Below, piece after piece: positions 37,984-42,155 of a stretch of DNA of 60,850 nucleotides (its first letter is position 1; the number at the start of each line of letters is the position of its first letter). The notes beneath the pieces are model-generated. The model was given only the letters and a program-made list of their open reading frames with translations. It did not search any database and had not been told where the DNA came from. The DNA is taken from contig JBHLQH010000021.1 in NCBI GenBank assembly GCA_048884965.1, forward strand, positions 1 through 60,850. Reading direction: 5' to 3'. The translations under genes and the position numbers were made by a program. This DNA is from Candidatus Thorarchaeota archaeon. GTDB lineage: Archaea; Asgardarchaeota; Thorarchaeia; Thorarchaeales; Thorarchaeaceae.

Positions 37984-38823
37984 CTAGAGGTCCTTTGCCC
38001 GAATTGATTCGATGTTCAGGCTATCTAGAATGGGCAGTAGATGTTCTCGCTGTTCCATGTTTGTACCTTTCCAATCTATGACAGCTCTTTTCACTTGTGC
38101 TTGGGAACGAGAGATCATCTGTCGTATAACGGATTCAGGGATTTCGTTAAGTGCATACTTTGGAGCAATATGTCCTATCTGAAGATCGTTTTCAAGAACC
38201 AACTTGTTGAACTTGGAAACATAGTGGGTCCCACCGAATCCAATATCGCACTCTCTACCAAATGGTTCCTTAGTGCACTGGATTGCCGCAGCAGCAACTG
38301 CTCTCGCACCATCCTCGTGAGTCCAGTATGTTTCATTACTACCCAATTCTACAAAGACCAAGGGAGTATTCATACTAGTGGGACCATGATGAGTTGCTTC
38401 CATGGTGACATCGAATTCAACCAACTCTCTTTCGTCTCGCTCCTTTTGCAAACATTTGAGTGCAGCAGAAGCTAGCGAAGAGGAGCAGATGGACAGAGAG
38501 AAAGGGTCACCACCAAATAAAGCATCAGGGCCCAGATTGCCGGTGCTATGTACAAGTAAAGCGGGTTGTCCAGATTCAGCTCTGTGTCGAGAACAGAAGA
38601 TATACACATCAGCAGGAACCTCATCTTCAAGATGATTCGATTGAACCATATCACGGGATGAAGTAATTAGCTTGACTCTATCATCATTTACAAGAATCGG
38701 ATGTCCATCGAAGGTCTCTCCATTCTCTCTAAAATCATAATCTTGGATGAGTACTTGTTTAATGGTTAGACTAGCAGGATCGCGAATTGAAGTAACGAGA
38801 ACTCGCAAAGTGATGAACCTCAA
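37984..38823 (-). CDS. dtdA: D-aminoacyl-tRNA deacylase, archaeal DTD2 type
   Basis: SIRDPAS, FCSRHRAES, LLVHSTGN, EATHHGPT, FVELGS, GFGGTHY, GHIAPKY. Confidence 0.92.
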   Translation of the reverse strand: MRFITLRVLVTSIRDPASLTIKQVLIQDYDFRENGETFDGHPILVNDDRVKLITSSRDMVQSNHLEDEVPADVYIFCSRHRAESGQPALLVHSTGNLGPDALFGGDPFSLSICSSSLASAALKCLQKERDERELVEFDVTMEATHHGPTSMNTPLVFVELGSNETYWTHEDGARAVAAAAIQCTKEPFGRECDIGFGGTHYVSKFNKLVLENDLQIGHIAPKYALNEIPESVIRQMISRSQAQVKRAVIDWKGTNMEQREHLLPILDSLNIESIRAKDL

Positions 38824-40064
38824 TTCTGCTCAATCTTGCATTTCTCTAGTAGGGGAATTAGTTTTAGTTCTTCGACTTCGATGCCAATCTTCTCATCGAA
38901 CGCCTGATTGATTTCTGTTTCAACTCTGGTCTTGAAATCCTCGAATTTCTCAATTTCACGTCGGATATCATCACCAACTCGAAGCAAATCATTCCTGTGA
39001 TATTCATAATTCTTCTTTGCTTCCTCCAACGCAGTTTCCAGGCTTTTGTTCTTGGCGTACACATCTGAGCCAGCATATTGAGTCCGCTTATTGTCAATAT
39101 CCTTAGCTTTCATCTGAAGATCCCTGAGCGAGCCATTCTTGATAATCTCAATCTCCTCAATAGACCGACGTGCAAGACGGTCTTTTAGCTTCAATGAACC
39201 AGATTCTATCGCCTTCACAAGTCCGTCCAGTCCCTCTACAAGAGCAGGATATCCTTCGGGTTCTTGTACGATAGCTGCAAAGGGATCTTCGAAATATTCC
39301 GCTAAAGCCTTCTGCCCAGATGGTCCTATCCGGACGCCGGTATCAGTTTGACCAAATTTCTTCACAGTCTTTCGAAGAGTGTTTAGCTTCATTCGAAGCA
39401 GACCTGCTATTCGCTCTGATTCCTCATCCAAGTTGAGTAGCTCTGACACATTGGACTCCTTCTTGAAGCTCTCAAACACATCTCGCTTCTGGTTGTATTC
39501 ACCTTGAGCTTGCTCAATCTTCATTCTGATGGTTCGTATCTGTTCCTCGTATACTTCTGTGCCATAGGTAATCTCTCGCATGGTTGTGATGCGACCACCG
39601 ATACGCTCCAGATCCTTTAACCAGCTGTATTCGTAGAGGAGTTTGGACAACTTCTTCATCTCATTACCGAGGTCGCCCATATGTCGATCCAAAGATTTGA
39701 TTGTGTCCTTGTATTTCTTATCCATGCGCCTAATCCATCGAGCCCCTGCACCCCAAATCTCTTGGATGAAATATTGAATCTCTCCTTGCATCGCCTCAGT
39801 ACTTTCGTAGGTGATGTCCTTCTTGACATCAAAATTCGCTACAATCTCATCGATTTTATTGGCGAACCTAGTGGCAGTGCCTTCTGCTTCTGCATCACTT
39901 TCTTTGCTGGCTTCCTTAAGCTCTGCACCCACTGCCTTGATGTCTCTAAGAGAAGCCTCAACGATTCTATAGCTCTTCTCTGCCAGCTTGCGAAAATCCT
40001 TACTCTTGTCACTAAGTTTTTTCCGATACCATTTCTCTAGTTCAGGGATTGATAGCGTTCTCAT
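38820..40064 (-). CDS. Long all-alpha/coiled-coil protein
   Basis: Helical and charged throughout, no NTPase motifs; probable start MRTLS at 40064; stop overlaps the dtdA start. Confidence 0.75.
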   Translation of the reverse strand: MRTLSIPELEKWYRKKLSDKSKDFRKLAEKSYRIVEASLRDIKAVGAELKEASKESDAEAEGTATRFANKIDEIVANFDVKKDITYESTEAMQGEIQYFIQEIWGAGARWIRRMDKKYKDTIKSLDRHMGDLGNEMKKLSKLLYEYSWLKDLERIGGRITTMREITYGTEVYEEQIRTIRMKIEQAQGEYNQKRDVFESFKKESNVSELLNLDEESERIAGLLRMKLNTLRKTVKKFGQTDTGVRIGPSGQKALAEYFEDPFAAIVQEPEGYPALVEGLDGLVKAIESGSLKLKDRLARRSIEEIEIIKNGSLRDLQMKAKDIDNKRTQYAGSDVYAKNKSLETALEEAKKNYEYHRNDLLRVGDDIRREIEKFEDFKTRVETEINQAFDEKIGIEVEELKLIPLLEKCKIEQN

Positions 40065-40224
40065 TTGTCTGGCACACTCGGATGTTTGCGAATTTTCATG
40101 CGCGTTTATCAACCTTTTGAAAGAAGAGGAATTGCTCTACACATAAGAGAAATTCTTGTCAGTAGAGGGAGGCTTTATATCATTCAGGATTGCCGTAAGT
40201 GTGCATAGGAACAAGTGGTCGGTC

Positions 40225-41025
40225 ATGTCAGAGGTCTTAGAAACCGGTAACCGGAAACCGAGACTCGATGCTGCCTATTCCCTTGAATGTGCTTCTTGAG
40301 GACAAGGTCGCAACGGACTCTTCATCAAAAGATTGAGCTTGATTGATCCCAAAGGCCATGATAGACTGTTGCTACGGAATCCAGCGAACTATAAAGCAGG
40401 ATTCTGGACAACATTCGTCTATGATAGTCAACCTCATGCCATCAGTTCCACGGAACCGATGAATAGGATGAATGTCACTTCAGAAACAGGGATTGGAACT
40501 GTGAAGATCTCAGCGGGATACAATCACCATGGTTGTAAACCACTGATTGAATTGACAGATAGTCTCTGGAGCAAGAACAAGCCAATGCTCTTCTGGCGTC
40601 ACAGTATAAAGAATACTGGGCGCATGGCCTTTGAGGATGTCAAAGCATATCTCTTGATGGACTTTGATATCGGAGGACCCAACAGCTACAAGGATGATAG
40701 TGGTCAGTATGACCCTGAAAAGGGAATTATGACTGTCTGGGATGAGAATCATCTCTTTGTACAACTAACGGGAAATCCAAAACCATCCGCTGGAGAGGTA
40801 TCAACGCCTGTCAAGTTGGTCATTGATGAAACCCGACGCGACCTAGGAAAACACCTCGAGATGGGTCCACGAGACATCGTAATCGGACTACAATGGAATC
40901 TTGGGAATATCGACCTTGGTGAAATAGCTACAGTCGATGTTGCCCTTGTTTCGGCAGTGAGCCTCGATGAGGTGAGAGACCTCACGCAAGACGCGTGGAG
41001 CCTCTTCGACAGGAAAATGCGATGA
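40225..41025 (+). CDS. Beta-rich protein with an in-frame TGA at codon 25 (C-A-S-UGA); candidate selenoprotein
   Basis: ATG 40225 is in frame with the 40333-41025 ORF; the only interruption is TGA at 40297-40299; TTTATAT box about 42 nt upstream of the ATG. Confidence 0.6.
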
Positions 41026-41131
41026 CATGAACACTGGAAATAAATGATGCTCATAGAGCTCAGGGAAGCACCCTGTTTCCTGTCGTACACCTCAGAATAC
41101 AGCAAGACGAAGTGACCCGCCTCGATTCTGC

Positions 41132-41458
41132 TCATCTAATATCTTCAAGATACTCGACAAGCATCAATGCTTCCTCCGTGAAGTGAGCAGGTTCACCTCT
41201 GTTGTTGATATCTCCACCAACTAGGAAACCCATTGCTACCAAGGAACGTAGATTCCATTTCACCGTACTATATGCAACTCCGGACTTTCGAGAGACCAGA
41301 TCAGCTAGTGTCGTAAGGGAAACCTCACGGTATCGCAGTGTATTTACACTATGCACTAACACTGATTTCTGAGTGGGATTCATCTTTGATTCAGCTAGCT
41401 TCAGAAATACAGAAGCTAGACTTCTAAAAGAAGATCCATAGGGAGTTTGTTCACACAT
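41132..41458 (-). CDS. Winged-helix DNA-binding protein
   Basis: MNPTQKSVL...SLTTLADLVSRKSGVAYSTVKWNLRSLVAMGFL..G; start moved to MCEQ because the upstream sequence is occupied by a small ORF. Confidence 0.75.
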   Translation of the reverse strand: MCEQTPYGSSFRSLASVFLKLAESKMNPTQKSVLVHSVNTLRYREVSLTTLADLVSRKSGVAYSTVKWNLRSLVAMGFLVGGDINNRGEPAHFTEEALMLVEYLEDIR

Positions 41459-41468
41459 CGGGCAGGTC

Positions 41469-41573
41469 TTAGACCCATCTGAGAACACAATCACCTTGTC
41501 TGGTAATTTCGCACTCACCTGGACATTTGACCCGACATCGATGGGCATCTGATGCAGTTGCTTCTATACCCAT
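41469..41573 (-). CDS. 34-aa Cys-rich microprotein
   Basis: GAGGTGA RBS, then MGIEATASDAHRCRVKCPGECEITRQGDCVLRWV*; ends 10 nt before the wHTH ATG. Confidence 0.55.
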   Translation of the reverse strand: MGIEATASDAHRCRVKCPGECEITRQGDCVLRWV

Positions 41574-41660
41574 TTCTTTTTTCACCTCTTTTTACATAGG
41601 GTCGACCAAATAGATTGCGAGTTTGTACTTAAATTTTCGCAGTAACGCTCAATTGCAGAT

Positions 41661-42155
41661 TTATAGAAAATCATCAGGCATCTCTAATCCTAATGATTGC
41701 AGCTTTCCAAAACCTTTGGAATACAGGCTCATGTGATGGCGAATGTCTTCCTCAATTAAAGCCAGTGATTCAAGAGACACAATGATGCCGTCCAAACCTT
41801 CAGACCTGTAATCATCTAGCATTGAACTAAGTGTGTCGCTCATCTGAAGCATCAGATCTTGAATGGTAACATTGAGATCAATCATCGAACGAACCGTTTC
41901 TGTTGCAGGGCCATGAGGCATGTAGGGTAGAAAATCTTCCAACGCAACACCAGCTTCACGACACTTATCCACACGCCCAGGGATGATCTCATCAACCATA
42001 TTGTGCAGCCATCCTAGACGTTCTTGATGAGTCAGGCTCTGGAGACCATCCATTGAGAAATATCCAGTCCATGGCATGAACTCTGTGCCTTCATAGGAAA
42101 TCCATTCATCAAAGGCAGATAATACACGACGCCATCCCTCTTCAGTTTCGGACAT
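41661..42155 (-). CDS. Hypothetical helical protein
   Basis: Probable start MSETEEGW after GGTTGA; acidic helical composition. Confidence 0.7.
   Translation of the reverse strand: MSETEEGWRRVLSAFDEWISYEGTEFMPWTGYFSMDGLQSLTHQERLGWLHNMVDEIIPGRVDKCREAGVALEDFLPYMPHGPATETVRSMIDLNVTIQDLMLQMSDTLSSMLDDYRSEGLDGIIVSLESLALIEEDIRHHMSLYSKGFGKLQSLGLEMPDDFL

Follow-up and report, generated by a model that had tools for sequence, protein, structure and literature searches.

A gene of 266 codons in a contig of a Candidatus Thorarchaeota archaeon (assembly GCA_048884965.1, contig JBHLQH010000021.1; the 60,850 nucleotides analysed are referred to here as the window) is, in our assessment, very probably a genuine selenoprotein gene. 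It lies on the forward strand at positions 40225–41025 and represents a previously unannotated family that extends across the Asgard archaea, in which the UGA at codon 25 is recoded under the direction of a selenocysteine insertion sequence (SECIS). An initial annotation, made from the letters of the window alone, had put the gene forward as a candidate new selenoprotein. That proposal is supported here computationally on several grounds: the TGA is conserved and flanked on either side by sequence under coding constraint, Cys replaces it in some homologues, the SECIS shows covariation, the genome has the selenocysteine (Sec) machinery, and both the predicted fold and the distribution of the family are in keeping with it.

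In the mechanism proposed, translation would start at ATG 40225, and the UGA at codon 25 would be decoded as Sec by tRNA-Sec together with archaeal SelB/EFSec. Decoding would be directed by a eukaryote-like SECIS of the kink-turn type in the 3′ untranslated region (UTR), about 720 nucleotides downstream. The product would be a stand-alone β-supersandwich of 266 residues that carries Sec (U) at the tip of a hairpin, three residues past an invariant Cys (E-C-x-S-U-G-x-G-R).

Conservation of the in-frame UGA

The frame opened by the ATG at 40225–40227 contains a single in-frame TGA (40297–40299, codon 25), in the context L-E-C-A-S-[TGA]-G-Q-G-R, and closes at the TGA at 41023–41025 with no further internal stop; a mechanical list of open reading frames (ORFs) begins the same gene later, at TTG 40333. 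These positions, and the single stop within 266 codons, are as the initial annotation had given them. The contamination of this metagenome-assembled genome (MAG) is estimated at 7.2%, yet the contig is syntenic with other Thorarchaeia.

Orthologous DNA was obtained from 47 species-level genomes, in nearly all of which the tblastn alignment spans residues 1–266. Codon 25 was then counted at 57 loci, made up of 46 species-level genomes (window included) and 11 metagenome contigs. It is TGA in 45 of the 46 genomes and in all 11 contigs, hence at 56 of the 57 loci, and the lone exception, locus L009, has TGT (Cys); this constancy, with conserved sequence to either side, far exceeds chance. A class-wide search of 87 genomes gave about 60 full-length matches with one TGA and one without, the Cys form; partial matches at contig ends also have the TGA wherever the N terminus is covered. 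Matches to the gene are present in 16 of the 17 genera of the class.

Both sides of the TGA evolve as coding sequence, as the initial annotation had proposed should be looked for, alongside a conserved TGA or Cys at codon 25. Differences per codon position amount to 0.28/0.15/0.59 over codons 3–24, which is a coding pattern, and to 0.25/0.19/0.42 over codons 26–34, compared with a flat 0.63 per position in the 24 codons preceding the ATG; just 5′ of the ATG the orthologues contain stops and no conservation. In-frame translation of the orthologues reveals a shared N-terminal pattern, M-S-E-x-L-E-T-G-N-R-x-P-R-L-D-x-x-Y-x-x-E-C-x-S-*-G-x-G-R-x-G-F-x-I-K-R-L-S-L-I-D. The N terminus is among the best-conserved parts of a 24-protein alignment, with M1, G8, P12, R13, D15, C22, U25, G26 and G31 invariant.

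It could be argued that the TGA is an ordinary stop, which would close an upstream ORF of 24 codons and be followed by a separate protein of 228–230 residues starting at TTG 40333 or 40339. Gene callers do annotate the gene in this way in every database record returned: the protein search yielded only hypothetical proteins of Thorarchaeota and "Promethearchaeota", 185–238 residues long and all beginning past the TGA, and one record, P0154, holds the upstream peptide as a separate protein of 46 amino acids. However, no start past the TGA is conserved. The first possible one is scattered among the orthologous loci from codon 27 to beyond codon 109, and 11 loci lack any ATG inside 120 codons, whereas codon 1 is ATG in 53 of 56 orthologous loci, GTG in two and TTG in one. 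Codons 26–36, past the TGA but ahead of the called start, show conservation at the protein level (G-x-G-R-x-G-F-x-I-K-R-L), and the frame is kept across the TGA in every orthologue. In addition, one orthologue and a whole subfamily (see below) read through the position with Cys, residues 13–40 are predicted by AlphaFold2 to form a hairpin of an all-β domain, and the genome supplies both a SECIS and the Sec machinery. An ordinary stop is thus exceedingly improbable.

The only Cys form among the Thorarchaeial orthologues (L009:2998–3795, genome G034) keeps the AUGA stop and a SECIS-like helix. Its genome has SelD with a TGA, and searches of it gave no match to SepSecS or tRNA-Sec. Loss of the Sec trait in this genome is disfavoured by the TGA-containing SelD, and the machinery cluster is probably unassembled. 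Most likely, Sec was replaced by Cys recently, in an organism that uses Sec.

The recoding element, the Sec machinery and the wider family

The stop codon of the gene (cgA-UGA) doubles as the AUGA of the SECIS core. All 45 of the 45 complete genes terminate in TGA, and their last sense codon ends in A (CGA, CAA and so on), with two exceptions that give GUGA. The aligned 3′ regions have the order AUGA, one nucleotide, an 8-bp helix (helix II), an apical G-UAAA-GC-nnn-GC, the returning strand, one nucleotide and GAG. RNAalifold recovers exactly the 8-bp helix, with compensatory changes in eight of the eight pairs, and an explicit count against the structure finds 93.6% of helix II cells paired across the family; the family consensus also has a possible apical ministem of 2 bp (92% paired). 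The covariation score of the whole structure is 0.468 compared with 0.201 in shuffles, none of 500 of which reached the former value, and overall pairing is 84%, as against 40–49% when the partners are slid by 1–3 columns. Helix I, which would enclose these parts, is the weakest, with 71% of its cells paired and three of its six pairs changing on both sides.

The published eSECIS-like model has a core of 5′-GA_[G/A]A-3′, usually AUGA_GA, an upper stem of 7–15 bp with no more than two mismatches, and an apical part that is either a loop of 8–20 nucleotides (type I) or a bulge plus ministem (type II), with unpaired adenines (Huang et al. 2024, PMC11227280). The window has the core (AUGA at 41022–41025, GA at 41056–41057) and a 14-nucleotide loop containing AAA; the family stem of 8 bp lies within the published range, and that of the window does so narrowly, as seven positions with one mismatch or nine with two. 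The apical G-U-A-A-A of the family matches the G[U/G]AAA reported for the SECIS of Thorarchaeial frhA (Huang et al. 2024, PMC11227280). The Asgard genes for VhuU/FrhA, HdrA-VhuD, PrxL and SelD resemble the window gene in combining an in-frame UGA with a 3′-UTR AUGA..GA kink-turn stem-loop that has unpaired apical adenines. A stop UGA within the AUGA is common to the window gene and Asgard VhuU; this overlap has been described for a Lokiarchaeal VhuU gene (PMC4989117) and is reported to be frequent in Lokiarchaeia (PMC11227280). In the genome studied here, two VhuU-type genes (R-C-Y-D-C-U-L-S-C-A-A-H) end in ...gcAUGA and ...ggAUGA, each followed by a 9-bp helix, a GAAAC or AAAAC loop and GA, a layout like that of the window gene. 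These elements were located by a loose pattern scan (AUGA, helix, AAA, GA) whose 138 raw matches genome-wide are mostly noise.

A covariance model of the family scores the window element (41022–41058) at 30.5 bits, its sole match in the 4.1-Mb genome; the model did not pick up the VhuU or selD SECIS of the same genome, being too family-specific. An Rfam search of 39900–41700 at E ≤ 10 returned three chance matches and no SECIS family, and no clean AUGA_GA element could be defined in the selD 3′ UTR, where an AUGA is seen at the stop, together with a long stem that bears a CGCAA-loop hairpin. A bacterial-type SECIS directly after the Sec codon was also considered and is rejected: RNAalifold gives no pairs there over 43 orthologues, so that the weak stem-loop which the initial annotation had noted at the UGA (40297–40324) is not conserved.

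The hairpin that had been noticed at 41061–41082 is real and is conserved as 41061–41075. Its role in recoding is putative, as is helix I as a pairing; were helix I to close around this second hairpin, the SECIS of Thorarchaeia would take the form of a three-way junction. In three selenoprotein genes of the genome, the SECIS core is followed by a second hairpin of 5–6 bp with a GC(A)-containing pentaloop, the loop being AAGCA in the window gene and CGCAA in VhuU and selD, and a distant subfamily has a similar one (CCCAAG-UAGCC-CUUGGG) in its 3′ UTR. In those parts of the Asgard SECIS literature that were consulted, this second hairpin is not mentioned.

The machinery that the initial annotation had suggested looking for (tRNA-Sec, SelB/EFSec, SepSecS, PSTK and SPS) is matched in the genome throughout, with PSTK below its cut-off. 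tRNA-Sec scores 55.6 bits, above the Rfam cut-off, and is called by ARAGORN as tRNA-SeC with anticodon tca; SelB scores 280 bits, above its cut-off, and SepSecS 437 bits. The PSTK-like gene, the only match and situated beside tRNA-Sec, reaches 139 bits against an NCBIfam equivalog cut-off of 290. SelB, SepSecS, tRNA-Sec and the PSTK-like gene, the last on the opposite strand, are clustered within 5 kb (C43:16684–20922); the SelD gene, located on contig C15, contains a TGA in frame as well (T-H-G-U-S-C-K). The same Sec machinery serves the window gene and the other Asgard selenoprotein genes.

Three Thorarchaeial genomes that lack the gene (G014, G060 and G030; 91–92% complete) are also without SepSecS, SelD and an above-cut-off tRNA-Sec, and other genomes without a match to the gene do have SepSecS. 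From the three genomes there is a hint that, when the Sec trait is lost, the gene disappears with it instead of changing to a Cys form. The single Cys replacement among about 60 Thorarchaeial species and the absence of the gene from the three checked genomes without Sec markers point to strong selection for keeping Sec, and to a selenium-dependent function.

An exhaustive profile search detected distant relatives, in several groups, in other Asgard MAGs. In a phylum-wide tally (E ≤ 1e-10), 210 of 400 sampled Asgard genomes have the family, concentrated in five family-level groups, with shares of 123/135 in a large Loki-type family (f22) and about 66/85 in the main Thorarchaeial family. One subfamily (P0165, P0066, P0096 and P0153) is Cys-only, with C-x-x-C-x-x-C at the same hairpin and a Cys aligned to U25; hhalign relates it to the Thorarchaeial family with a probability of 98.5% (E = 1.6e-15). 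Its four members share an extra Cys on the strand preceding an invariant Asn. Members of another subfamily, of the P0061 type, are annotated from residue ~37 and have an upstream in-frame TGA in F-D-Y-V-C-x-x-TGA (L072–L074, located with an alignment query; P0061 as a lone query recovered none of them). In an alignment of the three subfamilies, C22 and U/C25 are invariant.

Of 19 Loki-type N termini from f22, 18 carry TGA at the position homologous to codon 25, mostly as L-A-T-U-N, and one has AGA; a single N terminus from f30 reads C-S-K-TGA. Among six Loki-type loci inspected earlier, four have TGA, and two have Arg and a degraded N terminus. A lokiSECIS (AUGA, 8 bp, AAAAA loop, GA) lies 10–20 nucleotides past the TAA or TAG stop in five of the six genes, and the sixth, L075, has a looser AUGA...GA arrangement. 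Two lineages at ~20–25% protein identity thus each pair the TGA with a lineage-typical SECIS, which constitutes an independent replication.

Several observations weigh against the gene being a selenoprotein gene. The SECIS helix of the window is the weakest in the family: it has six Watson–Crick pairs and one internal mismatch (AUGA.UCAU plus CA.UG, with an A/C mismatch), it is absent from the minimum-free-energy fold (z = 0.18), and the genome-wide E value of its covariance-model match is 0.06. A database fragment of 119 amino acids, P0057, has Trp at the Sec position (E-C-S-S-W-G-K-G-R). Arg stands at that position, with the N-terminal strand degraded, in three Loki-type genomes (G274, G303 and G312; the codon read in G312 is AGA); the two whose 3′ ends were read, G274 and G303, still keep the SECIS. 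The weakness of the window helix, together with the fact that the element begins at the stop codon, is why the SECIS was overlooked in the initial annotation, which had recorded an AUGA...UGA arrangement at 41022–41054 lacking helix II and no canonical SECIS; that arrangement is the SECIS itself, and helix II exists, albeit in a weak form.

The Trp in P0057 and the Arg in the three Loki-type genomes could also mean that the UGA is read through as a standard residue, be it Trp, Cys or Arg, either because a near-cognate tRNA decodes it or because the code is locally altered. Yet TGA also serves as the terminator of all 45 complete genes, which speaks against its general reassignment; the SECIS-like 3′ element resembles that of the VhuU genes of the same genome; and the sole sense codon at this position, among the Thorarchaeial orthologues whose DNA was read, encodes Cys, the classical partner of Sec. 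The Trp of P0057 fits a gene call of TGA under genetic code 4, as its relatives at 50–71% identity all carry TGA, and it probably reflects such translation by a metagenome gene caller; the contig behind P0057 was not recovered in a metagenome scan. Readthrough as a standard residue accordingly appears very improbable, and Sec insertion is retained as the preferred explanation.

Predicted fold and possible chemistry

An AlphaFold2 model built with the 24-sequence alignment has a predicted local distance difference test score (pLDDT) of 93 and a predicted template-modelling score (pTM) of 0.91. It is all-β apart from one C-terminal helix, and strands 13–22 and 29–40 form an N-terminal β-hairpin with C-x-x-U at its tip. 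Foldseek ranks first the N-terminal regions of glycoside hydrolase family 94 (GH94) phosphorylases, a cyclic glucan synthase and GH15 enzymes, and after these aldose epimerases and the P1 domain of YidC; the E values are about 1e-8, with 1.7e-8 for the GH15/GH94 N-domain fold. Exhaustive alignment with VIA-align places the glucodextranase N-domain 1ulv_A first (Z 23.7, root-mean-square deviation 2.3 Å over 226 residues), with Z of 20–23 for the GH15/GH94 N-domains in 1lf6, 9ju0, 8rf9 and 2cqs, the whole model being covered; an Atlas structure search that used the truncated natural ORF as query agrees with this fold. The protein is accordingly modelled as a stand-alone galactose-mutarotase-like β-supersandwich of the GH15/GH94 N-domain type. 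No match named as a thioredoxin-fold protein is among the structural matches listed. The beta-sandwich body unlike known selenoprotein families that had been suspected from the translation is thereby borne out, AlphaFold2 giving a β-supersandwich that is not thioredoxin-like.

The predicted fold is common to the protein and the GH15-N/GH94-N supersandwiches (Pfam Glucodextran_N PF09137 and GH94_b-supersand PF06165). However, sequence identity to these is only 8–14%, the protein belongs to neither Pfam family, and, unlike GH15 and GH94 enzymes, it is a single domain of 266 amino acids without an (alpha/alpha)6 catalytic domain. Pfam and NCBIfam searches at E ≤ 1 gave no family match for the protein, and a sequence search of the PDB gave nothing significant (best E = 0.018, to an unrelated protein). 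To our knowledge, no member of the galactose-mutarotase-like supersandwich fold carries Sec or a redox motif. The protein is probably cytoplasmic, as its N terminus has, by eye, no obvious hydrophobic signal segment.

We infer that the exposed selenolate at the hairpin tip is the functional centre. A Cys–x–x–Sec (CxxU) motif is the commonest redox context of Sec. Redox cycling through a Cys22–Sec25 selenenylsulfide, on an unusual scaffold, would be the most likely chemistry in Thorarchaeia because the Cys at −3 is invariant there, and we give this proposal close to an even chance of being correct. Most Loki-type members have no such Cys, so the selenenylsulfide cannot be the mechanism of the family as a whole; the CxxU motif described in the initial annotation holds in Thorarchaeia and is not universal beyond them, the Loki-type form being mostly L-A-T-U.

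In the main alternative, Sec may serve as a ligand of a metal or cofactor, the hairpin tip, alone or across a dimer, binding a metal or an iron–sulphur (Fe–S) cluster. Sec is known to ligate Ni in [NiFeSe] hydrogenases. The hairpin of the Cys-only subfamily could be a metal or Fe–S site, with three Cys in seven residues and a further Cys on a nearby strand, an arrangement typical of such sites, and in most Loki-type members Sec is kept without the −3 Cys, leaving Sec alone constant. On the other hand, the Thorarchaeial proteins offer only two invariant ligand candidates, C22 and U25, and no metal-binding family is matched in Pfam or NCBIfam, which makes a ligand role somewhat unlikely. Besides the selenenylsulfide couple preferred for Thorarchaeia, the sugar-enzyme-like scaffold and a conserved acidic loop, D-F-D-I-G-G-P-x-S-Y-K-D-D, are taken as functional leads only.

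Two side observations concern related domains. Many Thorarchaeial genomes encode proteins of ~1,460 amino acids with a domain that is homologous to residues ~130–260 of this protein (E about 1e-8). Elsewhere, in other organisms, transglutaminase domains are preceded by a related one (P0067, P0075 and P0080).

Known selenoproteins and the surrounding locus

Published surveys have described a small set of selenoproteins in these organisms. Huang et al. 2024 (PMC11227280) restricted their survey of over 400 Asgard genomes to homologues of families already known, and reported seven Asgard families: SelD, FrhA, HdrA, FrhD, Prx-like, AhpF-N-like and DsbA-like. Mariotti et al. 2016 (PMC4989117), whose work in Lokiarchaeota included a de novo search, found only HdrA, VhuD, VhuU and PrxL plus SPS; Sun et al. 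2021 listed HdrA, Prx and MvhD, and a review of May 2026 puts the archaeal total at 11 families, its Asgard members being those already given. The family described here is absent from these published Asgard and archaeal lists, with which the initial annotation had recommended comparison, and from full-text searches, whose coverage left out most subscription journals.

The protein has no relationship to the seven Asgard or the 11 archaeal families (SelD, FrhA/VhuU, FrhD/VhuD, HdrA, FdhA, Prx-like, AhpF-N-like, DsbA-like and others), to none of which Pfam or NCBIfam detects sequence homology, and these two databases likewise show no homologue among bacterial or eukaryotic selenoprotein families. 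With the thioredoxin-fold CxxU/UxxC selenoproteins (SelW/T/H-like, DsbA-like, AhpF-N-like and Prx-like) it shares the CxxU motif and the occurrence of Cys replacements. It differs from them in its predicted all-β fold, in the position of the motif at a hairpin tip rather than at the start of a helix, and in that most Loki-type members do without the Cys at −3.

It is likely, though less firmly so than the recoding itself, that this is the twelfth archaeal selenoprotein family, apparently the only Asgard-specific one. It would then be one of the Asgard selenoproteins with the widest distribution, and might go back to an ancestor shared by the Sec-using lineages. Dedicated surveys would have missed it because every gene caller truncates the gene. 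If this is true, Sec would be placed on a β-supersandwich, a fold not found among the published selenoproteins searched. Archaeal selenoproteomes have been thought tiny, their 11 families being mostly shared with methanogens or bacteria and of hydrogenase/Hdr or thioredoxin-like type; a widespread, lineage-specific family with another fold would mean that surveys relying on homology arrive at too low a count of selenoproteins in Asgard archaea. The SECIS elements of these archaea attract study as archaeal–eukaryotic intermediates, and the family could add well over a hundred of them, complete with covariation and a second hairpin. Many public records that now hold truncated hypothetical proteins would need correction. 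As a small single-domain protein, the product should suit expression and biochemistry.

Coordinates of the gene, of the elements discussed in the text and of related features elsewhere are collected in Table 1.

Table 1. Features of the selenoprotein locus in the window, followed by related features on other contigs
Feature	Position	Strand	Remarks
Selenoprotein gene (very probable)	40225..41025	+	266 codons + TGA stop; Sec at codon 25
TATA-like promoter box TTTATAT	40174..40180	+	44 nt 5′ of ATG; putative promoter function
5′-UTR motif GTG(G/A)TCGGTC	40215..40224	+	directly before ATG; kept in most of ten orthologous upstream regions
Cys22 codon, candidate resolving Cys of CxxU	40288..40290	+	invariant in 24 aligned Thorarchaeial proteins and in the three-subfamily alignment
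In-frame TGA, very probably read as selenocysteine (U25)	40297..40299	+	TGA in 56/57 loci; TGT in L009
AUGA of SECIS core, including stop UGA	41022..41025	+	T, G and A invariant; preceding A at least 90% conserved, 45 loci
SECIS helix II and apical loop	41027..41054	+	41027–41033 with 41048–41054, one A/C mismatch; 14-nt loop 41034–41047 containing AAA
GA(G) of SECIS core, 3′ side of GA/GA quartet	41056..41058	+	A and final G invariant; first G at least 90% conserved
Second hairpin CAGGG-AAGCA-CCCUG	41061..41075	+	4/5 pairs change on both sides; 81% of cells paired
Whole 3′ recoding element	41011..41081	+	putative helix I (41011–41016 with 41076–41081) around SECIS core, helix II and second hairpin
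Hairpins in own genome	C13:30860-30914; C58:12841-12900; selD 3′ UTR just below C15:13973	-; +; -	follow selenoprotein genes
Domain in ~1,460-aa proteins	G046:C32:2308-2703; G045:C12:23517-23915		examples

Upstream of the gene, a TTTATA(T/A)-like box is present at equal distance in all ten orthologous upstream regions examined; the initial annotation had recognized it in the window and placed it about 42 nucleotides before the ATG, slightly closer than the distance measured here. The motif at 40215–40224 may act as a Shine-Dalgarno-like ribosome-binding site, judging from its complementarity to the usual 3′ end of archaeal 16S rRNA.

The gene order is the same in all Thorarchaeial loci examined: a D-aminoacyl-tRNA deacylase, a Lys/Glu-rich protein of 430 amino acids, the selenoprotein gene, a convergent gene for a winged helix-turn-helix (wHTH)-like protein of 138 amino acids, and a gene for one of 192 amino acids. 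The neighbours that could be named point to no common pathway, and the neighbourhood gives no clue to function. The 430-amino-acid neighbour (38820–40112, reverse strand) is divergent, Lys/Glu-rich and, by eye, helical, with no match in Pfam; on these grounds, the possibility that it supplies the missing GH15 catalytic domain of a split enzyme was rejected. Its conserved start is the ATG at ~40061 (M-R-T-L-S-I-P-E-L-E-K-W-Y) and not TTG 40112, because the orthologues begin there or are unconserved upstream. The convergent 138-amino-acid gene (41132–41548, reverse strand) has a weak, below-cut-off match (E = 6e-5) to the TK0271 transcriptional-activator family.

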